Source of the DNA: Sphaerodactylus townsendi
Lineage: Eukaryota
DNA: 64,000 nt
Direction of reading: 5' to 3'
Assembly: GCF_021028975.2 (NCBI RefSeq)
Contig: NC_059435.1
Location: 78,616,001 to 78,680,000 of the forward strand
Part shown: positions 3,618 through 64,000 of the stretch, one piece after another
Numbering within the stretch: position 1 is the first letter of the stretch
Layout of the letters: every line of letters starts with the position of its first letter
The notes under the pieces: model-generated
Told to the model about the DNA's origin: nothing
Database searches by the model: none
The model's input: only the letters and a program-made list of their open reading frames with translations
Translations under genes and position numbers: made by a program

Positions 3618-12109
<8,492 letters not shown>

Positions 12110-27899: not shown

Positions 27900-30800
27900 T
27901 GTCAAGAAGGGGAATCCCAGCGGGGCTTTGCTGGATCCCCCCTCCAACCTGGCAGGGTGGGTCGTGCGGTGGCTGCAGCCCTGACTGGGGCTTATGGGAA
28001 AGCAAGTGCTGGAGGGGATGGGTCTTGAACCTGGGCCTTCCAGGAAGAGACTGGGTGGGGGTGCTGAGGGGATCTCCTTCTCTGGATGCCTGTGGGAAAC
28101 CTTTTGCCAAACGCGGAGAGAGGAGGAGGAGGAGGAGGAGGAGACCCCGGAGGAGCCACAACCTGCTTCCCGCAGTGCTTGCTGTCTGTTCAGCTTATCC
28201 ATACTGAGGAAAATTCACTCTGTGTATGCTCAGGAGTACGACCCCCTAGCCACGAGTGTTTGGTAATCCTAATAGCTCCAGTTTTGGGGTTCTGTCCCGC
28301 CTGTTCTGCTCCGGCCGGGGGGGGGGGGGCTGTCCTGCCTGCCTATGCTCCCCTCCCCTCCAGGAGCTGGGAGTGCAACCCTGGCTCTTGCTGGTTAATC
28401 TCCAGTCTTCCCTCTGCTCTCATGGCCTACCTTCTAGGGTTCTTGTAAAATTATCTGACAAAGACATATGAAGAGTTTGGAATACTTTGGAAAAGCTCCT
28501 GGTCAATCCTGCTCAGAATTATGAGGAGAAAAGTGCAAGAGTGCCTCTGAACCCGCACAGAGTCCCTTTCCTTCCCATCTGAAGGAAGGTGGAGCATCAG
28601 GCCAGAGATGCCCTCAGACTCCTCCAGCTGGGAAGCAGCCGGGAGCCCTCCGCACGCCTCGCCTCGGTGCACGTGCAGAGGGGTCACCAGTGATTCATCC
28701 TCAGGATGTTCTGCAGAGGAGGAAGGGAGGGAGCTATTTTTAACGGAGGGCAGGCTGGGCGGGGCTCTGCAGTCTGTCTCGCTTCTTTGGAGAAACCCTG
28801 GATGGGGGGGGGGGGGCTGTTCACCTTCCCACCCTGAAGGGGCTGTGTGAGAGGCAGTGTGAGGTAGTGGTTAGTGCTCCTGGGGACACTGTCTGGTTTG
28901 AAACTCCCTAGATGACCTTGGACCGGACACCCTCTGCCTCCCCAGGGAAAGCGTGGTGCTGTCTCCGTGTTCTGGGTACTGAACTGCTGCCACCCCAAGC
29001 TCTTTGGTGGAAGGGGGGCTGAGACGCTGGCAAAGAGCTGCTCCCCCCCCCCTGCATTTCTGCTGCAGCAGACTCCTCCAGCCTGCCACTTTGTGGTGCC
29101 CACTGCGTGCCCCTCCCAGCTCCTCCCCTGGGGCAGCCCTGCTGGCATCAGAATTCTGCTGCCCTCCACTGCAGGGCGTGAGCGTGGATTCGACCCCTGC
29201 GCCGGCCGAGGGTCAGCCCTCCGAGAGCCCGGGCTCGGTTGTTGCTTCTTTTGGCCCTTGTGGCTGCAGCCATCTCTGACTCCTGGATGCCCAGGAAACT
29301 GCCCTCTGCCCACGTGTGTCACCGGTGTGGATTCCCCCGCAGGACGTCTCTTTCTGCCGATTGCTTAGAGTGCTCAGCCAGGCTGGCCGCTTGTGCCCGC
29401 AGCTGGGGCCCCTCCCAGCCAGTGGAGGCTCAGCACCAGACCTCGGCCTTCCTTTCCATATATCCTGCTCTTCTCAAAGCCGCTCCAGAAACGGTTCTCT
29501 CCCGCTCTGCTCTCTTGCTCCTCCAGCCCTTCGAGGTGGGCCAGGCTGAGTGGGAGACGGGGGAGGGCCAGGGCGGCTGAGGGCGCTGGTCGGCCACCCT
29601 GCGCGTTGGGGCCGGATTCTGGGCTACTTGAGTGGCAGGTGCTAGGAGAGGCTTCACCTGGTGCTTGGTGAGTGTGTGGGGGGGCTTTATCCTACAGCAC
29701 TGGGCCCCCAGCAGAGCCCAGCAGGCAACAGGTGGGTGGGTGTGGGGTAGTTGCTGTGGGGCAGGTATTGAGGGGAGCAAGACTCCCTCCCTCAGGTGTC
29801 TGCCAAAATACAAGTCCCCCTGCCCCCCCCCCCCGCCCTCAAGTGGTGTATGAAAAGAGAGGCGCATCCCAGCAAGTCCCAAATTGGGAACCTGGGGGGA
29901 GGGGGGGAGCTGCCTCTCCCACCTCTAGTTTATTTTGGCTGCCAGTTAGGGAGGGCTGTGCTGGAAGCCCCAGACAGCAGCAGATGGGGGGGCCGGGGGT
30001 GGGTGGCAAGGAGAGGGGCCCTGCTCTGCTTTCAGCCCCAGGATCCTTGGTCAGGGGCCCAACTCTGCCCCCCCCGTGGGGTGAAGCTGCAGGCAGACCT
30101 TTGCGGAGAAGCTCAGGCCAGGCAACGAAGGGTGGAAGAGGGCCGCCTCTGTGGTCCTTTCAGCCGCCTCATCCTCGGAACTGGAGGGTCTGCCTGCCGT
30201 GCTCTTGACCAATCACTCCCCCCATCCTGGGTCGGGGCGGGGGAGGGGCTCCGCAGAGGCCGGCGTGGTCCGTGGGGCAAGTGGGCCTGCGGTGACTTTG
30301 CCCTATAATCGCTTTAGCCGGATCAGGCGGGCCAGCCAGGGCTGGCCCCTGGAATGTGACATTGCTCCCCCCCCCCAGCACTGGCAGCCTGTAATTAATG
30401 CGGGGGGGGGGGTGCTGTGCCTCCTCTGACAAAGGTCTTTTGTCTGGTGGGAGGGGAGGGGCTCAGCCCCTCTCCTGGCTCTGAAGCGGCCGCCAGCCAA
30501 GGCAGGAGAGCCGAAGCGGCCTGGCGTGGGACGGGACGGAGGGCCACAGAGCGCGGGGGTGGGGTGGGGGGCGGGGGGCGCTGCTTTGGCCTGGCAAGGT
30601 AAGTCGGGGTTGCAGGAGGAGTGCGGGAGAGACACTGCAGGGCAGCCCCCGGCTGCAGTCTCTGCAGAGGGCATTCCAAATGCTCAATACTCCCAGCAGA
30701 GTGGAGCAGTGGTGCAGAGTGGTCAGAGCCCTGCTCAAATTGCTTGCTCTGTCAAGAAGCGCACTGGGTGACAACCATGGCTCAATTGCTTTTGAGTGTC

Positions 30801-31945
30801 CTACCTCACAGGGCTGGTAAGGAGATAAAATGGAGGAGGAAGAGCCATATATGCCAGCCTGAGGAAGGGGCAGGATACAGAAGGCCCCATGCTTCTCAAA
30901 GCAATCATGGTGGGGGGGGGGTCCTCAGGATGTGGCTTCTATATCATCCGAAGAGGCATTTGCCCGCTCTGGATCTTTTTTGGGGGGGGGGGTCTGCATA
31001 TGCTGCCTGCCCCCCCTGCATGACAGGAGACCCAATTATCTTCCTGTCATGGAGGCAGGGGTCGGCTTTGATGTGTAGCCCCTCCCCCGTCAGTGGATCT
31101 GTAAAGCCCACCGTATCCCTCTCTCTGTGTCTGTGTGATGAATGTTGATGTGTCAGGTGTATATTATGGGGCGGGGGGGGGGGGCGTTAGAGAACAGACT
31201 GGCTTCAGCAGAGGCTCTGTCCTTGATTGGCATCAATGAGCTAACAAGTGGTTTGTTTGAGTCACAGAACTCAACAGTATTTGCATGGGGGGAGGCGGGG
31301 GCTCTGAATAGAGCGCTTGGTGGCAGGGCCTGTGACTTGGACCTCTGTGTGTGCGTGTGCGTGTGCGTGTGCGTGCCTGCATGCACCTGGAAGCCCTTTT
31401 TCCTGTTCCCAGTGACTTCATATTGTGTGGAAGGAGTTTTGCACATGCCCAGAGCTTAGTGGGGGGCAGGTTGGCTCAGGCGAAGTGGGACCGCATTGCC
31501 TTGGGGGGAGGGCGCTGTAGCTTTCTGTTTTCCCTGCCTGCCCTTTAGCTGCCCGTTTGCTGGGCTGGGGGAGGCGGTGGTCCCTCTGCTTGTGAGAACT
31601 GGATGGGCACCCTCTCCTTGGCACGGCTTTCCCTGGAACAGTCTGCTGCGTGTTTATGACTCTCTAATCCCGCCCTTGCGTGGCAGGCTGGCTTAAGCCA
31701 AGGAAGCTGCTTATTCCGTGGGTGGGGGTGGGGGGGTGGGGGTCTGGGACCGGAATCCCTGCCCAGCAAGGGGATGCCTCTTCCAGCTGAGTTTCAGCCT
31801 CTTTCCGCCAACTCCAGGTCCTCCAAGAGTGGTTCTGGGGCTCCCACTGCTGCAAGGAGGTGGGGAAGCTTCAATTGATTTTGTTATCCAGCACTGACAG
31901 GGAATAGGCATTGCCAGTCAATCAAATGTGACATTCAAGGGTGGG

Positions 31946-32168
31946 GGAGGGGGCCCGGCATCTGGACATGGCCCACCCACCCTAGCGGAGGGGAGGGAGG
32001 GGGAAGGGTGCCATGCAAAGGAAGGGGAGTGAGTGAGGGGTGGCATGCAAGGGAGGGGTGGGAGCGGGAGGGGGCCCGGCATCTGGACATGGCCCACCCA
32101 CCCTAGTAGAGGGGAGGGAGGGGGAAGGGTGCCATGCAAGGGAAGGGGAGTGAGTGAGGGGTGGCATG
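31946..32168. repeat. Tandem duplication, about 120-bp unit x2
   Basis: GGGCCCGGCATCTGGACATGGCCCACCCACCCTAG...GAGTGAGTGAGGGGTGGCATGC occurs twice. Confidence 0.9.
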
Positions 32169-34319
32169 CCCCCTGCGTATTTGCTCCGTGGCCACTGCCT
32201 GGGCCTCCACGCCTGTGTGGGGAGCGGGGCAGGGGGTGGGGGTGGGTTGGCTCAAAAGCCATCTGGAGAGACCCTGGTTTGCAGGCGCTCCGTGGGCCTG
32301 ACCTTGGCTCTTGGCTGAGAACTGCCGTCTGGGATCCCGCACTGAAGGGCTTCCTGGTTTCCCTGCTCCTGCCCCCTGGCCAAACCTGGCACTCGCCACA
32401 GGTGCTGAGGCTACTGCCCGCCTCCTCCACACCTACCCCCCACCCCCCACCCCCCGGCCCCATGGAGCTCCTTGCAAATGCCCACAGACAGATTTGCAGA
32501 GTGGTGGGGTGGGGGGATGTGCTCAGTTGCTTTGCGTGGGGTGGGGCCAGGCAGGACCCCACGGCTGTTCGGTCTCTGACCTCTGAGGCTGCCCACAGAG
32601 ACCAGACTCATTAAGGGGTCCCACTGCGGCTGAGGAAGCCCCCTCGCTTGGAGCTGCAGCTGCCAGGACCCCTCCCTCCTGGGCGTGGTGCCTCAGGGCC
32701 TGCCTCCCACCTGCCCCAATTAAGGGAGGCTGGGGGGTGGGGTGTCTTAGCCCAAGGAGCAGCCCTTTGGGCTCACACCAGGAGGGGCCAACAATAGGAT
32801 GCCCCCCTGTTTGTGTGTGTGTGGGGGGACTGTATGTGCCCAGAAGGCTGTGGGGTGGTGGGTGACCACCTCTGAAAAGGGCGGGGGTCTGCTCTGTGAT
32901 GGCTCTGCTCCGTTTTGAGGCCAGCTGAACCATTTTGTGGCCATGAGTTCCAGGAGTTATTTTTTCTGCTGCCTATGAAGTGGTCTTGGTCCCTGTGTCC
33001 CCCCCCCCCCCCGTCCCCACCCCCTGCACACAGGTGTTTGGGGAACAGGGGAAGAAGTTCTGTTTCTGCACAGCTCCATCACCCGGTGTGAGAGGCGGCA
33101 GTGTGAAGCGGGGGTACATTTTGTACTAGGACCAGGGCAACCCAGATTCCAGACTGTGCTGTGGAGCTTTGCTGGGGCACCCAGGAACAGTCGCTTGCTT
33201 TCAGCCTTACCTACCTCCGAGGGTTGGTGTGAGGCTCAAACAGAGGAAGGTGCTGTTGTGGGGGCCAGCGGATGTGAACAGCCGAGCCCCGAGGGCGGCG
33301 GTGCTGTGGAGGGCCCCAGCCTTCCAGGGGAAAGGGCAGCCTTGTGGCCATTTTGAGCAGTTTGTTGCTTGCCAGCCACACGAGGTAGGCCAGGGAGAAG
33401 TGGCTGCAGTTGGAACCCTCTTGTGCCGGGCCCAGAGGCCCGCCCTGCTGGGGTGGTTTGGGCAAGTGGGAGAGGCCCGTTGCTGCTCCTGGGCCAGAAT
33501 GTGGGCCGGTGGATGAGTCCTTGGGGAGCCGTTGGTCTCCTGTGGGAATGCTGGGAGGCCGGTCAGCTTAATTGGTGCCTGGAATGTGGAAGTTCTGGCT
33601 TGGCAGAGCCGTGGGCAGCCCCTGCCGCCCGGAGCCGGAGCCGGACCCATAACCAGAGCAGCAGCCCGGCCTTCCGGACCAGGCAGTTGGACCTGGCTGG
33701 AGGCAGAGAGCATCCATCGGGGTGGGGGTGGGTGGGGGGCAGCGGACAGAAGAGGACTGGCCGGTCAGGTAGCCAGGGAGGTAGGTGACCTGTACCACTG
33801 GACCTGGAGCAGATGGGGCGATCCAGCCCAAACACCTGGAATTCTCAAGGGGGTGTATTCCGGAGGGTGGGGGCATTTCAGGCGCCCGCACCCCCCACCC
33901 CATTCCAAGACTGCTTGTTCTTGCCTCCTCCACAGTAATTATTTCTGGCCCCCTACCTGAGAAAAATCTTGGCTTTTGCCAGCATCCGGCAGGTGCCAGG
34001 CAGCGGGGGGGGGGGGGAGCACATTCCTCCCCTCCGACAGGATTGCCTCCCCTTCTTTCCCAACAGAGACAGCGGATGCTGCCGGGGCAAAAGAGCGTGT
34101 GTTGGGGGAGGGGGGTTCTCTTCCAGCCAGAGTTGTGCTAGAGGAGGAGGGGGGGTGTTGGGAGGGGCCCCCAGGCTGCGTGGCTGGTCTACTGCAGAGT
34201 GCTGATCCACGGGGGGGGGGGCACCCCACTTGTCCCCTTTGGCCTGCCTGGCTTGTGGGGGCTCCTGGGTGTCTGTGCCGGCCAGGGCACCTTCAAGGCC
34301 TTTGGGGGCCTGCTTCGGA

Positions 34320-35080
34320 GGGGGTGACGCAGACAGCCCGCCCTCCGGCCGGACAGCGCCGCCGAAAGCAGAGGGGGCGCAGGTGTGCCCCCCTCCCGCC
34401 CTCCCTCCCTCCCTCGCGGGCCGTGGCCCTGGTGGGAAGGGGGTTGCCGGGTCGCTCCGCGCCGCCCTCGGCCTACCTCGCTGGGTTGTCGCCTGCTCTC
34501 GTGTTCCGTCGGGCCGGCGACAGCCCGGTGAGGTAGGCCGAGGGCGGCGCGGAGGCGCCATGCGGACCGCCAGCCTGGGGGGAGAGGAGTGTGTGTGTGT
34601 GTGGGGGGGGGGGGGTGAGCGAGGGCCTTGTGAGGGCGAGTCACGGCCGGGCTTCCTCCTCGCCAGCCGGGCAGCATAAAGGCGGGTGGCGGCGGGGCCG
34701 GCGGGGCGGCGCGGCGGAGGTGAGCGGGGCGGGGGGCGCGTGTCCGGGCCGGCTGGGGCCGGAGCGGCGGCGGTGGCCGGGTCGGGTCCGGGCGCCTGTT
34801 GCTCTTGGGCGCCGGCTGGCCGTCGGCCGCCGCCAAGAGCAACAGGGCCTCGCCCGCCTCCGCCCGGCAGGACGCCGCCTCCGCCGCCCGCGAGGAGAGC
34901 AACGGGGCTGGGGGGGAGGGATTGGCTGAACGCCCCCCCCCCCCGCTTGGAAGATGCTTGGCAAAAGACCGGGAAGGACGTCCTGGCCGTCGGAGGCTTC
35001 CTGGGGAGGGTCGGGGGGGGGGGCTGGCAACGAGGGGCCGCCTGCCCGGATGCCCGCCCGACGCCACTTGGGGACCGGGA
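34320..35080 (+). promoter_or_regulatory. CpG island, likely SLC4A2 promoter and non-coding exon 1
   Basis: CpG-dense block just upstream of the ATG-bearing exon at 35301. Candidate donors are GAG|GTAGG (34533) and GAG|GTGAG (34720). Confidence 0.7.
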
Positions 35081-35399
35081 AGGAACCCCCCCTCCTCCTC
35101 CAGGTCGGATTGGCCCAAACTCCTGGAGGGTTACTTTTGGAGGGTTTTCCTGGGTTGTGCAGACTAGATGACCCTTGGAGATCCCGTCCAGCTCCGTTTC
35201 GATGTTTCTAGGCTTCTCCACCCTCACGCCCCCACCCCCCGCTGCCGCCCACGGGCACTGACTGGCGGCTGCCTCTTCTCTTCTCTGCCCCCGGTTCCAG
35301 GTTATGGTGCTCCCGTTCCACCCTCTGAGGCCCAGCGAGAAAGAGAAAGGCTGAGGAGGGATCACCCCCCCCCCCCGCCCCGCACGTCTCCTGTCCATC

Positions 35400-35450
35400 A
35401 TGAGTCGCTCCCAGGGCTCCTCCGAGCTCCACCGCATGGCCTTCAAGGGG
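35400..35450 (+). CDS. SLC4A2: SLC4A2 exon 2 coding part (AE2a N-terminus MSRSQGSSELHRMAFKG)
   Basis: Exon 35301-35450 has a polypyrimidine/CAG acceptor and a GTGAGT donor. It carries 17 codons in phase 0, as human AE2 exon 2 does, and resembles the chicken AE2 N-terminus MSRSPVSSELHH (recalled). Confidence 0.78.
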
Positions 35451-35771
35451 GTGAGTAGCATGGCTGGAGTGTCACCAGAACCAGACCCGCTGGGTGGGGC
35501 GGGGGGGGCACCTGCCAGAGGGTGAAGAGGTCTCTGCCACTCTAGGGCAGCGGCTTTGGGGGCAGGCCTTGGGGGGAGGGGGGGGCTGTCTGCCCCCCCC
35601 CCCCCGCTCGATCTGTGCTTGCTTGGGACAGTCAGGGTGGAACCTTATAGCCCATTTAGGGGGGGGGATGGTCTGGCTGTCCGTGGGGGTGGCCATTCTT
35701 GGGTTGGTTCCTCTTGGTGTGGGGTGAAGCAGGTAGGGGGACTCTTCCTTCTGGGCCTTGAACAGTTCGGG

Positions 35772-36390
35772 ATGTCAGAAGAGCCCTGCTGGGTCAGAGC
35801 AGTGAGGGGGGCCCATCTAGTCCAGCTTCCTGCCAAGTCATAGACCACTGGCTCCCTCTCCTGGGCCAACAGCACTGACAGAGAAGCCCCTCCTGGCCTG
35901 CTTCCTGGCTCTGGGGTCCAGAGGTTGACTGAAGGGGGAGGCTCCCATGGCTGGGAGGCCCTGTCAGACTCTCATCGGGGAATCTGTGGAGCTCCCTTGG
36001 AAAGCCGCCTCTACCTGTGCCCAGGAGCACCTCCCCCCACCCCCAGGCAGCGTCTGAATCCCTGGCTGTGTGAGGAAGCATTTCCTGGGGCCCTCCTGAA
36101 TTTGCTGCCCATCCTCTTCAAGACCTGGTATTGGGGGAGAGGGAGGAAAAACAGCCTTTCTCAACTGCCTCCACCGTGTGCCTAATGTTACGAGCCGGGA
36201 TCCCCTCTCCCCTTAGCTTTCCTGTTCTTAAAATGACAAACCCCAGACTCTCCAGCCTCTCCCCACAGAAAAGGGGTTCCAGCCCCCTCATAGTCTTGGC
36301 TGCCCCCGTCTGCACCTCTTCCAGCTCTGAAGTGCATTTGGAGATACGGGGACCAGAAGAAGCACACGGTATTCCAAACGGGGGCTGCAT
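35772..36390 (-). mobile_element. CR1-like LINE 3' fragment
   Basis: Minus ORF ...ELEEVQTGAAKTMRGLEPLFCGERLESLG resembles the CR1 ORF2 end, with a CCATCTAGTCCAGC 3' UTR motif. Confidence 0.75.
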
Positions 36391-38076
36391 TTCCCCTCCA
36401 TCTCCCCCGCTAAAATAAAGGAACTTGGGAAGACTCTGCTAGTTGAGTTTGGGCTCGGGGGTGGGGGTGGGGGTGTCCAAGGGAGTAGTGCATGCTGGGA
36501 TGTGTAATCCCTCCATACCTGAGCGGGAGGCGCCAGCGCATGTCCCTCGCAGGAGAGTGCTGGGACCGGAAAGCCCCTGGGAAGCTGCAGGAGGGCGCTC
36601 AGAGCCCCGTGTCCGTGGCGGCTGGTTGGCTGCAGTCTGGCCTTCCGTGGAGCCTCCCTGGGGCAGCCCCAGAACCAGTTCTCGGTTTCCTGCGTTCTGC
36701 CAGAAATGGACCAGTGCCTCTGAGCATGGGCCAGGTTTCTCCCCAGAGGCTAACAGGCTGCCACCACGCTTTGCATCTTGGGAATGACACTTCTTGGTTG
36801 CCTGCGGAGGCACCCCCTCGGGGACTTCTGTCCCATCTTGCCAGCCCCCCCCCCCCCCCTGAAGGCCCCATCCTGAGGTCTGAGCTGGAGGGAAGGCAAA
36901 AGGTTGGCATGGAGTTAGGGGGTCGGAACGCAGCACCCACGGGCAGATTCTGTGCTGAGCAGAAGAGTTGCCGGCTTCTAATTGCTGCCCGATCGCCCCT
37001 TTCGCCCCCTGCAAGGCGCCAGAGGTGGCCTCATCCGCACCCCACAGAGGCTGACTCCCAGACGGGCCCTCTGCTGCCCAGTGGGGGGGAGGGGCGCGCA
37101 CTTCGCGGGAGCATCCTGCCTGCCCCCGAAGCAGCTGCTGCTGAACAGCGTTTGCGGGCCTTGACGTGGGGCAGCTGGTGGCCGGGCGGGCGGGCTCTAC
37201 CTGCCGGGTCAGGGGTCGGCGAGCGGGCCTGTGGTGCCCAGGCAGGGTCTTGGCGAAAAGGGAGGGGCCGTCGGGGGCTGGCTTCGGTTCCGGAAATGCC
37301 CCCTGCTGCACACCTCTGGGGCCTCCTCCAGGTGGGCACTACATGGCACTGGATGGATGCCCTGGCCTTTTTTGGGAGGGGGGCTTCCTTGGAATGCTGC
37401 AGAGCCTGACCCTCTATGGAGCCTAGCCCCCCCCCCCCATACACACCTCTTGCCTCTCCCTCCTCCTCCTGTCTGGGCAGGGCCTGGGGGGGGGGGGTCC
37501 TTGCCTTTGGCCAGCCACTTTTGTGTGGAGGGGACAGCCCCCCCCCCGCATGCTGGTGTAGCGGATCCTGCTCCCAGGTGCAGCCAGTGGTGCTGCTGCG
37601 GCTGTGCTGTGTGAGCACGTGGCTCTTGTTTGCTAATAACACAGTGCCAGGCAGGCAGGCAGGCAGGCAATGCGGGGTGTGGGGAAGGGCGGGGGGAAGA
37701 GAGCTGGAGGTCTGAGTGAGGCTGCCCCCCCCCCCCCGGCCTCCTTCCTGTGATCGCCTGGGTGTGGCTGCCTTCGGACAGCATGCCCCAAGGTGGGCTG
37801 GCGGGCGCTTGCGCTTGGGTGGTGGCTCCGAATGCCAGCCCCCCCCCACCCCCATCTCAGCAGGCTGTAGTGGGTGACACAGTCTTCTTGAGCCGTGGTT
37901 CTGCCAAGGGGGGGGGCATCAGCTTCCACCTGTGTCCCAGCCCTGTTTTTAGCCGCCCCCCCTGACGATGGTGATGGGAGGGAAGCTGCAGGGATCTCTG
38001 GGCCTGAGCTGAGCAGCTTGACAGCTGGGGAGGGGAGGGGAGGGGGGGCTGTTTTGCCTTCTGAAATCTAGGCGTG

Positions 38077-38116
<40 letters not shown>

Positions 38117-38959
38117 AAGAGCTGCTGTCTTGTTTCTTCATTACAGCACTAAGATCCCAGCGTCCCTCTTGCTTCAGGGCTGCTGACCAGCGTAGCTAAA
38201 CATTCCAGCTAAAACCAAAGTTCAGACGGCCAGACCCGAAAGCCTTCCCCCCTGACAAGCTGCCGGCCATTTCATTTCGGAGCCCCTGAAGAGCCCTGGC
38301 AAACAGGCAGACTGTGCATCGCCCCTGAAGGCCTCCCCCCCTTTAGGGTGCCCCTGCCAGAGCTGGGGCTGGGATGGGAAAGGCCCGGGCTCCGGTCAAC
38401 AGCAGATGGGCCATCCCACGCGGCTGCCAGCGGAGGGCTGCCTGGTGACCGTAGTTGGCGCTCAGGGCCCCAGAGAAGGAGGGCAGGGGCTTCAAGATGG
38501 CAGCCAGCCCCTGGAACTGCTGAGCTGGCAAGCAGACTGGCAGCCGGCCAGGGGCTCCTCTGTGTGCAGAAGGCAGGCAGAGGTGGGAGCCGTGGCTGCT
38601 CCGGGGAGGCTTGTCTGGTAGCTGTTTGGCCCTTGCCCCTGCCAGGCAGGTGGCAGCACGGGGGGGGGCAACGGGGGGGGGGCTGGGAGGTCATGGCCAC
38701 CTGCCTCTGGCTGGTGATGAGCAGGCCTTGTGCTTGGCTCTGCCTCTGCGGCTGGCAGCCATGTTGTGAATGGACCCAAATGTGCAAAGTGGCCACAGGC
38801 CCCCAAAGGCTCCTGCCCTCTAGCCTTCAAGGAGGCACGAGGACCCCCTCCCCCTTTGAAAGGCTGGGGGTGTTGTCATGTGATGAGATGAGAGCACGTT
38901 TCCCCCTGGCCAGTCCGTTTTTTGACTGCACAGATGGAGGGGGGAGCCTTTTCCTCTCT

Positions 38960-39347
38960 GCCAGTGTTGTCAGTACTAGTCTGTATTTTTTATCTATGAC
39001 TTGAATGACGGCATAGAGGGCATGATCATCAAGTGTGCAGATGACACCAAATTAGGGGTGGTGGTGACAGGGTCAGGATTCAAAATGACCTGGACAGATT
39101 ATAGAGAGCGGGGCCAAAACTGACAAAATGAATTTCAACGGAGATAAATGTAAGATTCAACACTTAGGCAGAAAAAATGAAATGCACAGATATAGGATGG
39201 GTGACATCTGACTTGTGAACGGTGCACGTGAAAAGGATCCGGGAGTCTTAGCAGACCACAAACTGAACATGAGTCAGCAGTGTGATGCGACGGCCAAGAA
39301 AGCCAATGCGATTCTGGGATGCATCAATAAGAGTATAGTGTCTAGGT
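38960..39347 (+). mobile_element. CR1 fragment, abruptly truncated at a MITE
   Basis: KCADDTKLG...[30 protein letters not shown], colinear with the CR1 at 62665-63589 up to GTGTCTAG. Confidence 0.9.
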
Positions 39348-39495
39348 CAGGGGTAGGGAACCTGCGGCTCTCCAGATGTTCAGGAACTACAATTCCCATC
39401 AGCCCCTGCCAGCATGGCCAATTGGCCATGCTGACTGGGGCTGATGGGAATTGTAGTTCCTGAACATCTGGAGAGCCGCAGGTTCCCTACCCCTG
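39348..39495. mobile_element. Palindromic hAT MITE with discordant TSDs
   Basis: CAGGGGTAGGGAACCTGCGG...CCGCAGGTTCCCTACCCCTG forms a 148-bp hairpin. The flanks are GTCTAGGT and GGCTAGTC. Confidence 0.92.
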
Positions 39496-39932
39496 GGCTA
39501 GTCCCAGTTCTCTCAGAACTCTCTCAGACTCACCTGCCTCACGAGGTGTTTGTTGTGGGGAGAGGAAGAAAAGGAGCTCCTAAGCCACCTTGAGTCTCCT
39601 TGCAGGAGAGAAAAGGGGGGGGTATAGAAGAAGAAGAAGAAGAGTTTGGATTTATATCCCCCCTTTCTCTCCTGCAGGAGACTCAAAGGGGCTGACAATC
39701 TCCTTGCCCTTCCCCCCTCACAACAAACACCCTGTGAGTGGGGTGGGGCTGAGTAAACTCCGAGAAGCTGTGACCTTGCCCAAGGTCACCCAGCTGGCAT
39801 GTGTGGGAGTGTACAGGCTAATCTGATTTCCCCAGATCAGCCTCCACAGCTCAGGCGGCAGAGCGGGGAATCAAACCCGGTTCCTCCAGATTAGATACAC
39901 GAGCTCTTAACCTCCTACGCCACTGCTGCTCC
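39496..39932. mobile_element. Two tail-to-tail Squam3-like SINEs: 5'-truncated (+) 39496-39626 and near full-length (-) 39626-39932
   Basis: Both share the SINE core CACCTGCCTCAC..GGTGTTTGTTG. The (GAA)n tail of the minus copy abuts the plus copy. Confidence 0.82.
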
Positions 39933-40126
39933 TATAAATCCAAACCCTCCTTCTTCTCTGGGCATCGGCTCAGGTGAGGGTCAGGCAGGTGCTGGGATCT
40001 CTGCTTCAGGTCTCCCCCCCATCCACTGCTGAAATCGGACTCCGTTTGGCAAGGTTCCCACACTCTAGTGAAGGTGGGGGGCAGTGTTGCCTGCCCTGAT
40101 GCGGTTGGGGGGTCTCTGTCTTGCAG

Positions 40127-43100
40127 CTCAGAGGGGTCTGAGCGCAGCATCATGGAGGGGCCCTGTGTGGCCGAGGGGGGCTCTCCAGGGCGCTCCCTCA
40201 GCAAGTCCCAGCCAGGCCACCGCAGCTACAATCTGATCGGCAGCATGACTGGCGTGGAGCAGGCCCGCTACCAGAAAGTGCCCACCGACGAGTCCGAGGC
40301 TCAGACACTGGCCTCGGCTGACCTGGACTACATGAAGAGTGAGTGTGTGTGTGTGGGGGGGGGGGGGGGGGGGGGCACATGGACTTCCCCAGCCAGAGGC
40401 CTCCGCCCAAACCCTTTGAGAAGGGGGAGGTGGGCTTCCCCATGCAGGCCATTCCTCTCCCACTGGCTGGCCCTGACCCCTCCCTGTGCCGAAATGCGCC
40501 CAAGTGAATCACGTGGTGGGTTTGTGCACTTGACACTCTTTCTGCTTTGCTTCCGCTCTGTTGTCAAACTTCTGGTTGGTTGTGCCCCCCTGCGGTGTGG
40601 GCTCAGTTAATCCAAAGGCCCATCCGGTGACTCCTAGGGACTTTCTCCCCGTCGTCTGCCTCGTGTCCCGGTGGAGAAAGGCTGCAAGGAGCCCCTTCCG
40701 GACTCCTCCAGTGCACGACCGGCCTGGCTGCAGTGAGGCTGGCTGTCCGGCCTAGAGGGAGGGAGGGAGGAGCGGCCGCTGCCTTCCAAGGCTGCACTGG
40801 GGCAGGGGAGCCCTGGCTGAGCCTTCCCAGCATGGTGGCAGCGCCTGCAGGGTTTGCCCGCCTGGAGCTTTGCGAAGGGTGCCTGGCATCGGCTGGTGCA
40901 GGAAACCAAGAGAAGAGATCGGCGGCACTTTTGCTGGGAAAGAGGGCCGCTCCGAAGGCCTTTCCCCTTGCGGATCCCGGCCAGTTGCGAAATTAGAGGC
41001 CAGCGCTCCGAAGCCCACAGGTTCAGCTGCTGGGGGTAGCCAGACTTCGGCTGGGCAGATGGGCTGGGAAGCCCCCCCCCCCTTTGCCCTCTGGGAAGTG
41101 GAACTCAGAGCAGAGCCCCCACCTGGCACACAGGAAGCCAGCCTGACCCCATCTGGGTCTCTATGCTGAGCCGTGGGGGGGGGGCAGAAGATGGGGTGTG
41201 GGGGGGCGGAGCTGGCTTTCAGGCGGAACGTGGCATTGCAGGGCAGAGGGCACGGGGTTCTCCCTGCTCACAGAAGGAAGGGGGGCCGGGAACTCCCCAG
41301 TGTGAGTGGAAGCGGCTTGGCCCCTGTTATCTCACACACACACACCCCGCCCGCCCCCAGTCTCCTGAATTTAGGACCTGGCCCAAAGACGCAGTTGTTC
41401 AATGAAGGGGGACACGCGCGTGCGCGCACACACACACACGTGTGAATAACAGCCCCACCTTGGATGCCTGAGCCACCTCGGGGATCTCCTTAACAAGCCA
41501 GCCCTCCCCCCTCAAATGCCCACAGCTCTTTCTGCTCCATCGCTACAGGCCACCGGTTCGAGGACGTCCCCGGAGTGCGGAGGCACCTCTTTCGGAAAAG
41601 TGCCAAGGGACAGGTGGTGCACCTGGGCAAGGACCACAAAGAGCCCAGCGCACGGCAGCGCAAGCACGACCGGCAGCCCCACGAGGCGAGTGGCTGTGCT
41701 GGCGGGGGGGGGGGGGGCAAGCCTTCCACATTCAGAGACCGAGGACCTTTGTATGCCTTCTGCCGGGGGGGGGGGGCGCCAGGGGGAAGTCAGGTGTATC
41801 CACAGTGTGCTTTCCAGAACGCCCAGGTGTGGGGACAGGATACTGGGCTACAGGGACCTGCCCCACCCTGGGAGAAGTTGCCCCGTCTCAGATATCCTGG
41901 TCACATATGGATGGATGGATGGTCCTCTGCTTTTTTTGGGGGGGGGGACATCATTGTGGTGGGTGCAGCCCCAAGATGTACAAAGACGTGGACAAGAATT
42001 TGTGTGCTCTCAGGAAGAGGCCTACTGATGGCTATCTTTTGGGGGAGGGGCCAGGATTTGCCTTACAGGCTCTGCTAGGGAGCTGCCCCCCCCCCCAATG
42101 AGAGGCTTGGGGGTTCTCCCCTGCAGTTGACTCCTCTGGAGCAGTCTGGCCTGTCCACATTCTCCCTCCCTCCCTCCTCCAGCCTATGGAGGGAGAGGCA
42201 CGCACGGTGGGTCACCTGTAGAGGGTCACCTGTGGAAGGGCTCCGGGGGGGGGGGCTTTTTGCTCCATCCAGGGAGCTCTTCCAGGAGGGGCCCTTGCGC
42301 CCGCCTGCACACCCGAGGGTCTGATCTCTGGCGGATCTCTGGCTCAGGTGTTTGTGGAGCTGAACGAGCTGGTTCTGGACAAGAACCAGGAGATGCAGTG
42401 GAAGGAGACGGCGCGCTGGATCAAGTTTGAGGAGGATGTGGAGGAGGAAACGGACCGCTGGGGCAAGCCACACGTGGCCTCGCTCTCCTTCCGCAGCTTG
42501 CTTGAGCTGCGCAGAACCCTGTCGCACGGTAAGAGGAGGGGGGGGGTCTCCCGGGGTCAGCAGGCCCCCATCCCACTGTCCTTGCAAGGGGCAGGGAGGG
42601 GCTGCCCCCCAGAAGGCAGGTGGCTACAGCTGCTCCTCCTGCTCGTTCCAGGAGCCGTCCTTCTCGACCTGGACCAGAAGACGCTGCCGGGGGTGGCGCA
42701 CCAGGTGGTGGAGCAGATGATCATTTCCGACCAGATCCGTGCTGAGGATCGTGCCAACGTGCTGCGAGCCCTGCTCCTCAAGCACAGGTGAGACCCACGG
42801 GGGTGGACCCCCTGGCCCTCCTGCCTCCTAGGGGTCAAGGGGCATTCAGACCCCTGCTAAGCCACAGAGCACCAAGCCCGCAGAGGTGTGGTGGGTGGGC
42901 GGGCGGGCGGGCTCCTGCAGGGCCTGGCAGCAGGCGAGAGGAGGGGAAGGAAGGCCTGCTGCCACGGCCTTGGGAGGGCGAGCCACTACAGACTCGGGGC
43001 TTCCCTTGCAGCCACCCTTCGGACGAGAAGGACTTCTCCTTCCCCCGCAACATTTCAGCTGCTTCCCTCGGCTCGCTTCTGGGCCATCATCACAGCGCCA

Positions 43101-53400: not shown

Positions 53401-56400
53401 GTGAACTAGGTCAGCTTGTGCACTCCAACACAACTGGGTGACCTTGGGCGAGTCACAGTTCTGAGCACTCTCAGTCCCACTTACCTCACAGGGTGTTTGT
53501 TGTGAGGGAGGGAGGGCAAGGAGATTGTAAGCCCCTTTGAGTCTCCTTGCAGGAGAGAAAGGGGGGAGATATAAATCCAAACTCTTCTTCTTCTTCTTGA
53601 CCTCTGGATCGTACAACCATGCTTAGTGTTCTCTTTCAGCCGCCACTCACAGAAGTGGCCTTCCAGATCAAGAGGATCTGAGCCTCTTTCCATTCCTACT
53701 TGTGTCTGACGAAAAGAGCTTTAGCTCTTGAATGCTTATACCCAAAAAATCTGGGTGGTTTCTATGGTACTACTGGATTCAAATCTAGCTGTGCTTCTGC
53801 AAAATAACACCAGGACTCTCTGAAGATATCTGCAATCTTCTCACAAAAAGGTCATGACCACACCCTCTCTTGGATCGCCCCCTTTTACCTGTACTTGTTG
53901 TTGACCTTGTCTGCAGTAAGAGCACCATCAAACATGCAGACACGGAATCGGGGATCAAGGCGGGGCCCATCATATTCATGGACCTCCAAGGCCACGGCCA
54001 CATCCAGAAGGGAAAGGTAGCGGCGCACAATCAACCCACAGGGGCTACCTGGGAAGGAACAGCGCGTGAGAAGTTAGCCCGTCTGCCACATCAAACCTGA
54101 AAAAAGTAGATACATGTAAATTCTCCTCTGCCAACCCCCCCCCCGCCCCGAATATATTTCTTCTCAAAGGACCCCCCCCCCCCCCATTTTTCGGTTTGGA
54201 AACATTAAAACATTTGGAGCACTGGAAAAAAATATCCTGTGAAATATTTTTTTCTTTTAGAAGTAAAACGCTCAAGGCAATTGTTTTCATATCTGCTGAG
54301 GATGTTTTCAACTTTTCCAGTGAAAAATTCCAAATTTTGGTGAACATTAGGGAAAAAACCCTTTAGTTAACGATCATAAAATTAAAGAACTCAATTTTCA
54401 AAGTTATTAAGTTTAGCTTAATATCCCAACTTGTTAGTACCCAAGTACCCTCCCCCCTTCCCTTCACAGCTGCCTTTTTAATTCCGAAAGGTGTGCCCAT
54501 CCATCGGCTCCGGGTTGATGGTGGCCGCCCAGCCCCTGCCCTTTGGAGCAGAGCCCCACCTGAGACCGGCTGGAGTCCCAGATGTTTAACCCACATGTCT
54601 CCCCACGGCGGCCACCTCAGAGTCTCAGGGCCCCGGGGCAGCCTGGGCAGAGTCTTCCTCTTTGTGCTAGAACAGGGGTAGGGAACCTGCGGCTCTCCAG
54701 ATGTTCAGGAACTACAATTCCCATCAGCCTCTGTCAGCATGGCCAAAAGGTTCCCTACCCCTGTGCTAGAAAGAGCCCCCTCCTGCAGGCTGGCACATGG
54801 CTGCATGAGAAAGGTTTTGTTCAAATAACACTTTCTTAGAGACATGGTTTACAACTCCTGGGTATACTAGCAACATTTGTACTTCTGAATTCCATTAAGT
54901 ATGCCAAGCAGCACCGTTTTATAGGCTAAGTTATAAGCAACACAATTCATGCTGCTCGAGGGCCAGCCTGCGGAGGTCAAAAAGGCTCCCCTGGCGCTGG
55001 CAGCCAACAAAAGTAACGCAAAACTGAATTCTGCAGGAAAATATTGTATAAGACCAGTAGGGTTATTTTATAGTGCAAGAGTTCAGGAAAGCGCTTAAAT
55101 AAAGAAAAAGGGTCCGAGGACTCTGCTGCTGTGTGTCGCGCACACTGTCTGTTGCATTCTACTCTCTGTTACTTTCATTTAACATGTCATATTAATACTG
55201 ATGCTTTATCTCAGCTTTCTGCAGTCCTAATCCACTCAAGTTGCTTACGACTGATTGATTTATACAATGTAATTTGCCTTGGGACTTAGGTAGAAAGATG
55301 GATTATAAGTAATGCAAATTTTAAAGAAGAGTTTAGGTTTGACACAAAGATATTTAAAACATTTCAGTCCCTCCACCTCCACCCACAGAATTTGGCTTCA
55401 ACATTTCTGGACATTTCACACCAGCAGGGAGCCCCCTCCCTCCCCCTTACTGGTGACGTTGTCAAGGAAGCCTGGAGAGAAGACCTGGTGTAGGACTGCC
55501 AGGGGGAAGTGGCGCAGCTGGAACAGAGACATGAGGATGTTGGTGGTGGCCAGGGGCGAGGTGGCCGCCTTCTGCAGCAGCACCGACTCCAGCTGAGGGA
55601 AGAGCTCCGCGTGGTTGCAGGGCCGGTAGTTTGTGCGGCTGAAGGGGAAGACCAGCTTCTGGATCACCTGCGGCACAAAACCAAGAGGGAGCCGGCCCCC
55701 ACTTATCCCCACGGCCTCCTTGGTTATCCCCCAGCGGGCTTGGACAATTTGCCATTCAGTTCTGCATTCCCAGCCCTACTGCCTTGTCTGTGGCTGCATG
55801 CCCCCCTCTGTATGTGTGTACACACACACAGGCACTCTGCAAGCACACACGTGAAAACTCTGTTGAGCCCTCATCCTCCGGGCCTTCTCCGCTCCGCTGA
55901 AGTTGCTTCCGGCCATTAACTGACAGCCAGATCCGCCCTGAAAGGGCAAGGCGCGGGGGGGGGGGGAGGTCTGCAGGGTCCTCCCTGCAGGGGCTGCCGG
56001 TTCTGGCGGGGGGGGGGGTGCAGGCGGGGGGGCTCCTCCATGGGGGGGGGCAGGCGCACCTTGGGGTGGAGCCGGGGGGCCCTGGGCAGCAAGAAGGCGG
56101 CGATGGCGTCGAGCAGGGGCGGCTGGCGGAGGCGGTGGCGCGCCACGTACTGGGCGATCAGGGCCAGGGTGGCCGGGCTCAGGCCCTCGACCGCGCCGGG
56201 CAGCCAGCCTGCGGGGAGGCGAGCGGCACTCAGCACCCGGCCGGCGGGACCCCGGAGCCCCTCCCTTCCTCCTTCCCCCCCCCTTCCCTCCCTCCCTCCC
56301 ACCCACCCACCGGCCAAGGCGCGGGCGAAGCGGGCCGGGCGGCGGTGGCAGAAGGGCGGCGAGCTGAAGAGGGCCTGCAGGGCGGCGTCGCCGGGCGGGC

Positions 56401-59747: not shown

Positions 59748-59873
59748 CACAGGTCAATACGTATAGTCAAACTCGCGGCCCTCCAGATGTTATGGACTAC
59801 AGTTTCCATCATCCCCTGCCAGCATGGGACTGTAGTCCATGACATCTGGAGGGCCGCGAGTTTGAAACCTGTG
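59748..59873. mobile_element. Palindromic hAT-like MITE upstream of TMUB1
   Basis: Arms TCAAACTCGCGGCCCTCCAGATGTTATGGACTACAGT and ACTGTAGTCCATGACATCTGGAGGGCCGCGAGTTTGA. No clear TSD. Confidence 0.78.
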
Positions 59874-62664: not shown

Positions 62665-63589
62665 TGAGTAGTGGGAGCCACGTGGTTCTGTCGTGGGCCC
62701 AGGGCTATTCAATATTTTTATCAATGACTGGGATGATGGAATAGAGGGCATCCTAATCAAATGTGCAGAAGACACCAAATTGGGAGGGGTAGCTAATACC
62801 CCAGAGGACAGATTAGAGAGCTGGGCCAAAGCAAACACAATGAATTTAAACAGTGATAAATGTAAGATTCTACACTGAGGCAGAAAAAACGAAATGCAGA
62901 TATAGGACGGGTGACATCTGGTTTGGCAACACTACACGCAAAAGGGATCTGGGAGTCTTAGCAGACCACAAACTGAACATGAGTCAGCAGTGTGATGTGG
63001 CAGCCAAGAAAGCCAATGCAATTCTGGGCTGTATCAATAAGAGTATAGTGTCTAGACTGAGGGATGTATTTGTACCTCTCTATTCTGCATTGGCCAGACC
63101 TCACCTGGAATATAGTGTACAGTTCTGGGCACTGCAATTCAAGACGGATATTGACAAGCTGGAACGGGTCCAGAGGAGGCCAACCAAAATGTCAAAGGTC
63201 TGGAATCCATGCCCTGCGAGGAGAGACTTAGGGAGCTGGGGATGTTTAGTCTGGAGAAGCGAAGGTTAAGAGGTGACATGGTAGCCATGTTGAGATATTT
63301 GAAGGGATATTATGTTGAAGAGCCAGCGAGCTTGTTTTCTGCTGCTCCGGAGACTAGGACACGGAGTAATGAGTGAAGGAAAAGAGATTTAACCTAAACT
63401 TCAGGAAAAACTTCCTGACTGTCAGGGCTGTTCGATAGTGGAAGTGTGGTGGAGTTTCCTTCTTTGGAGGTTTTTAAGCAGAGGCTGGATGGCCATCTGA
63501 TAGGAGTGCTTTGATTGTGTGTTTCTGCAGTGCAGGGGGTTGGACTTGATGGCCCTTCTTGGGGTCTCTTCCAACTCTATGATTCTATG
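62665..63589 (+). mobile_element. 5'-truncated CR1 LINE
   Basis: GPGLFNIFINDWDDGIEGILIKCAEDTKLGG (RT core) and LYSALARPHLEYSVQFW, ending CTCTATGATTCTATG. Confidence 0.92.
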
Positions 63590-64000
63590 CCCATGACTTT
63601 AAATAGTGTATCAGATTCCAGCAAGCAAGATCCAGAGCACAGTGGTTCCAAGTACAGAAAGAAGTAACTTACAATCTGCCCACCTGATCCAAATGAGATA
63701 AAGAACAATCAAGACACTGAGGAGATATTAGATTAGTCAAAAGAGGTATAAAGAAGAATTTGGGTCATTCACCAGGGATAAGTCTAAGCTACAATGCAAT
63801 GCAAACTGCAAGAGATTAATTTCCACAAGTAGAACACTGATTTATTGCAGTGTTTCTTAACAGGTACAGAGGGAGGAGCAACTGAAGATCACTGAATGGC
63901 ACTAATCAAGCACTTCTTTGTTTTAATTTATTTAAATGAAGTAACAGCAAAAAAAAACTAACTTCAGGAAAAGAGACTTTACACATTAAATAGGAATTTG

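Follow-up and report, generated by a model that had tools for sequence, protein, structure and literature searches.

The locus studied here raises the question whether a gecko has lost a piece of the anion exchanger gene SLC4A2 (AE2), whose exons 3-5 cannot be found in the assembled sequence, or whether the piece has been lost from the assembly only. As set out below, the early exons are likely missing through an error of assembly, the gene itself having kept them.

SLC4A2 exons in the window

The window, i.e., the whole stretch of 64,000 bp that was analysed (G000:C11:78616001-78680000), belongs to a 1.81-Gb assembly in 1742 contigs and contains no N gaps. The GC content of the region amounts to 60-74%, a repeat block excepted. 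The exons on both sides of the missing part are:

35400-35450, plus strand: coding part of SLC4A2 (AE2a) exon 2, 17 codons with a phase-0 donor, resembling the N-terminus of gecko AE2 P0001
40127-40338, plus strand: SLC4A2 exon 6, requiring a phase-2 upstream exon and lacking 15 nt (NERRR) after 40235
41549-41685, plus strand: SLC4A2 exon 7, which a contig of the public run X5 joins to exon 6

Among the protein matches of exon 6, the named ones are anion exchange protein 2, the best being that of a gecko (84% identity), and the exons downstream of exon 6 are stop-free and align with P0001 at 84-98% in single-exon alignments. Exon 6 contains an in-frame Met. If exon 2 were spliced directly to exon 6, its phase-0 donor would meet an exon in need of phase 2, and a stop would follow after 21 codons. 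An alternative first exon of AE2b was not found by motif in 30000-41000. The minus-strand exon at around 12139 is presumably the start of CDK5, which we take to be the usual neighbour of SLC4A2.

The first-pass annotation had reported exons 3-5 as missing, and this is borne out: no credible match to gecko AE2 residues ~22-210 exists in the window, and a search of the assembly with the full-length AE2 protein, performed as a stricter first look, yielded nothing before residue 211. With a probe of 69 aa from exons 3-4, just two weak matches (51-63% identity) were obtained, both on contig C2 at the site of a paralogous anion-exchanger gene; since the probe picked up paralogue matches of this quality, a match of about 90% would be expected to show. 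A 24-nt piece of exon 5 taken from run X5 remained without a match in G000 even when one mismatch was allowed. Exons 3-5 mapping elsewhere, which would have spoken against a chimeric origin of the locus, were thus searched for in the assembly and not found, the exon searches in these 1742 contigs giving lower bounds. In three other geckos, exons 3-5 have a length of about 572-578 nt.

The MITE between exons 2 and 6

Within the repeat block upstream of exon 6 lies a MITE, for which two related elements in the window serve as comparators:

39348-39495, no strand: MITE of 148 nt, a hairpin whose terminal inverted repeats match perfectly over 15 nt; letter-identical copies occur at 13 other loci
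7195-7342, no strand: comparator MITE of a related subfamily, 82% alike, with intact 8-bp duplication (ACTTAGGG twice)
54673-54763, no strand: comparator MITE of the same family, internally shortened to 91 nt, with intact duplication (TGCTAGAA twice)

The element at 39348-39495 folds into a single hairpin (-94.2 kcal/mol, z -25), none of 200 shuffled sequences reaching an equally low energy, and its self-complementarity is 95%. It is a member of a repeat family, for which the genome search gave 1589 first-look candidates, 40 of them being scored. In its terminal inverted repeats, its shortness and its non-coding sequence the element conforms to the hAT type, and the 8-bp target duplication typical of that type is present across the family (exact in 41 of 49 other copies), but not at the copy itself, where 3 of 8 positions differ. 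The CTAG targets of the family presumably resemble those of Charlie/Buster-type hAT elements. A literature search for gecko hAT MITEs with target site duplication found no paper. Another related hairpin, the ends of which differ, is situated at 59767-59865 of the window.

The perfect 8-bp duplications noted earlier around the two comparators (ACTTAGGG around 7195-7342, TGCTAGAA around 54673-54763) were found again, as were the unlike flanks of the copy at 39348-39495 (GTCTAGGT on the left vs GGCTAGTC on the right):

39340-39347, plus strand: left 8-mer GTCTAGGT, a CR1 target site; the same 8-mer is duplicated at the CR1-site MITE of locus L024
39496-39503, plus strand: right 8-mer GGCTAGTC, a SINE target site, with exact duplication in loci L002, L013, L015 and L020

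Concerning the frequency of such flanks, 63 loci were scanned, 51 of which contained the full element, 50 of these being distinct, such that 49 copies besides that at 39348-39495 could be compared. Their flanks were identical in 41 copies and differed at one position in five, at two positions in one, at four positions in one, and at six positions in one. The loci had been chosen as best matches to a flanked query or by one fixed flank, and the counts therefore mark unequal flanks as a minority and do not give a genome-wide rate. CTAG was present on both sides in 48 of the 50 parsed copies.

The copy with four differences of eight (locus L014, 1499-1662; G000:C11, around 69.48 Mb) is a second MITE with unequal flanks; on one side it borders a minus-strand SINE cut at the same site, and on the other side unrelated DNA. 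In locus L043 (1227-1515), a 289-nt element with MITE ends has flanks that differ at 6 of 8 positions; it may be a further chimera or a mis-paired end.

Broken repeats on both sides of the MITE

Both neighbours of the MITE are incomplete repeats:

38987-39347, plus strand: CR1 fragment ending at the MITE, 81% identical to 62715-63055; its 3' part of around 540 nt is missing (comparator 63049-63590)
39496-39626, minus strand: 5' body of an older SINE that breaks off at the MITE and is without its 3' part (alignment to the plus-strand SINE)
39627-39932, plus strand: full SINE inserted into the head of the older minus-strand SINE, with TATA on both sides
39933-39957, minus strand: kept head of the minus-strand SINE, 92% identical to 39656-39632

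The left CR1 stops at the MITE, as had been described, and the copies at 62715-63590 and from 9629 onward continue. A deletion of the SINE head, which had been proposed together with it, is not confirmed: being a minus-strand element, the SINE keeps its head (39933-39957) and the first around 130 nt of its body (39626 down to 39496), and around 155 nt of its 3' part are missing. The full SINE at 39627-39932 sits in the opposite orientation to its older host, with a TATA duplication.

That both flanks of the MITE are plausible CTAG-centred targets can be maintained, and intact MITE copies use the same CR1 site and the same SINE site. At the CR1 position, a MITE with exact duplication, behind which the CR1 resumes, is found in loci L003, L007, L009, L022 and L024; at the SINE position, a MITE with both SINE halves present is found in L002, L013, L015 and L020, the numbers of loci at both fixed sites being inflated because the query contained the flanks. 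The two flanks are hence halves of separate target sites. On its left the copy resembles a MITE inserted in CR1 and on its right a MITE inserted in the SINE, as if one side of each insertion had been brought together.

A decayed target site duplication was considered as the source of the flank mismatch and ruled out, since 13 other loci share the MITE letter by letter and its flanks stem from different repeats. In both CR1 and the SINE, a single fixed CTAG site recurs as a MITE target, the repeats supplying many target sites.

The MITE end followed by the left 8-mer GTCTAGGT occurs at 87 places in the assembly. Three of these lie off C1-C17, on unplaced contigs, and show neither AE2 exons nor, at the MITE end in question, a continuation of the CR1; these three contigs did not yield the second MITE copy of the locus. 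Thirty of the other 84 places were examined, nine of them being without the full element, and none of the flank-parsed ones continues as this CR1 site.

RNA and DNA reads of the species

Seven of the 16 public runs listed, none of which was labelled as RNA, were compared with the window, three of them (X4, X6, X9) over 39962-41720 only. Run X5, which covers exons and bears the same organism label as the runs of the best DNA match (organism A), is taken as RNA because exons 6 and 7 are spliced in its contig. This contig has a length of 930 nt at a depth of 213; letters 1-30 correspond to exon 7 and letters 42-261 to exon 6, and a further 669 letters lie upstream, which is long enough for exons 3-5. 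The 30 loose and 4 aligned letters next to exon 6 read SPAARRAKTG-S by hand translation, in the phase needed by exon 6, the comparator being the end of exon 5 in Gekko (P0019), SPAARRAKAG-S. With exon 5 spliced to exon 6, the species has and splices exon 5, of which the final 34 nt were read, and it probably has and splices exons 3-4 as well, their presence in the RNA resting on the length of the contig.

Run X5 stems from a different sample (S4), with a difference to the window at 40295, such that it establishes an intact allele for the species, not for the assembled animal. A second contig of X5, which is identical to 40385-41578 of the window (intron 6 and the start of exon 7) at a depth of 14 vs 213 for the spliced contig, represents either unspliced RNA or DNA carry-over. 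Its identity over 1194 nt argues against a mislabelling of X5.

A second defect is situated 740 bp from the MITE junction, where 15 nt (five codons) are absent from exon 6 after 40235. The five residues are present in 120 of 120 homologues, and the 15 nt are present in six of the seven read sets (X1, X2, X3, X5, X4 and X6), the exception being X9, which has no listed match to precisely these 15 letters and 19 gap letters in its piece. Over about 1.4 kb, the long single-copy contigs of X1-X3 are free of substitutions against the window, for which reason a real decayed haplotype is unlikely, and the gap in exon 6 is likely an assembly error. Two deletions 740 bp apart on a background free of substitutions would be easier to explain by assembly error than by mutation.

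Across the MITE itself, the contigs of the public runs break within the repeats, at 39095 and at 39910, and none bridges the block between them, so that the DNA shows neither the joined form nor a pair of MITE copies. Variants are dropped from contigs, which could therefore conceal heterozygosity for a deletion or for the 15-nt allele. Depth over repeats was not taken as copy number.

Origin of the junction

The first-pass annotation had left open whether two MITE insertions had recombined or had been merged by the assembler. The chimeric nature of the junction stands, and of its two explanations the merge is favoured: we consider it probable that the assembler passed directly from one MITE copy to a second, near-identical one and left out the DNA in between. 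In the true locus, the CR1 and the SINE would then each carry a MITE copy, with exons 3-5 between the two, at what is now the MITE junction. On passing from one near-identical copy to the other, the assembler would have dropped the intervening DNA, and the loss would concern the assembly, not the sequenced animal. With a MITE that is 95% self-complementary, a merge would be possible between copies in either orientation. The amount lost would be at least around 1.4 kb (exons, CR1 end, SINE end, and one MITE), plus introns. What favours such a collapse over a biological event is the splicing of exon 5 to exon 6 in X5 together with the second defect in exon 6.

Concerning the deletion that had also been proposed, a form fixed in the whole species is refuted by the RNA of X5; as an allele of the single sequenced animal, whether arisen by recombination or by transposase, it is on the whole unlikely.

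Recombination of two MITE copies could have produced a real, probably heterozygous, deletion allele that was then kept by the haploid assembly. The clean junction without N would agree with this, and so would the 13 other loci with identical copies, the second, shortened copy 15 kb away (the family hence being locally dense), and the junction of the same kind in L014. However, the 15-nt defect 740 bp off would then have to be a separate error or mutation on a substitution-free haplotype, the frame of AE2a would break, and loss of Slc4a2 or of AE2a/b is harmful in mice (PMC2809306), though a heterozygote could be healthy. We regard this origin as decidedly improbable.

Still less probability, and indeed very little, is assigned to a real deletion made by transposase, in which one end of the element would have reacted with a target close by, as in alternative or adjacent transposition, so that a single intact MITE was left beside a new flank of the target type. 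The CTAG-centred flanks on both sides, CTAG being found on both sides in nearly all parsed copies, fit such an event, and maize hAT elements produce deletions in this way (PMC3744419); however, the objections to a recombination allele apply here equally, and the sequence cannot separate the two mechanisms.

It is just as improbable that the junction, real or artefactual, is small and that exons 3-5 were dropped elsewhere in 35451-40126. The part at 35451-38150, which lies outside the read comparison, is rich in G/C runs and contains a GT repeat, but the MITE is the sole visible discontinuity and cuts two different repeats at once. Finally, a species-wide loss of exons 3-5, with only an N-terminally short AE2 being made, would agree with the absence of the exons from the assembly and with the in-frame Met of exon 6, but can hardly be upheld, being contradicted by same-species RNA with the splice of exon 5 to exon 6 at a depth of 213, unless X5 were mislabelled.

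Comparison with known systems

Missing exons belong to the commonest kinds of false gene loss (PMC9516821). With such cases, the gecko locus shares 5' exons that lack a match in the assembly though the species has them (one independent run of the species contains the end of exon 5, and exons 3-4 are indicated by length), the GC-rich and repeat-rich setting, and an accompanying false indel; it differs from them in having no N gap and a seamless join at the MITE.

With non-autonomous hAT MITEs, the family shares the short terminal inverted repeats, the 8-bp duplications in 41 of 49 other copies, and the lack of coding capacity, the copy at 39348-39495 differing by its unequal flanks. For Ac/Ds of maize, alternative transposition with reciprocal deletions is described in PMC3744419, and a deletion that ends exactly at the element end beside a target-type 8-mer is common to both systems; it was demonstrated there in the presence of active transposase, whereas the joined allele of the gecko is known from the assembly alone.

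The mouse variant AE2c1 is 198 N-terminal residues shorter and has a separate promoter (PMC4664831). The assembled gecko gene could at most give rise to a similarly short AE2, starting from the Met in exon 6; unlike it, AE2c1 as presented there is a promoter variant of an intact gene. Mice without Slc4a2 are toothless, and loss of AE2a/b harms enamel (PMC2809306). A literature search for an SLC4A2 deletion in geckos found no paper, and the main text of PMC13005343 does not mention SLC4A2.

The locus calls for caution, as conserved exons lost seamlessly, with no N gap, and a hole of five codons that keeps the frame would both be called real by a screen for gene losses; unequal flanks on a young MITE constitute a cheap marker of such joins. 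If the deletion were a real allele, it would be a naturally occurring partial knockout of this important acid-base transporter and would directly document deletions driven by MITEs in a reptile, both mechanisms being of already known kinds. It is conceivable, if doubtful, that the young MITE family makes real deletion alleles, one of which would remove the AE2a/b exons of SLC4A2, segregate, and leave an AE2c-like short exchanger only; copies like that in L014 would then mark more of them.

At around 31950-32170, upstream of SLC4A2, two near-identical tandem copies of around 125 nt each were seen by eye, which represent either a real duplication or an assembly stutter.
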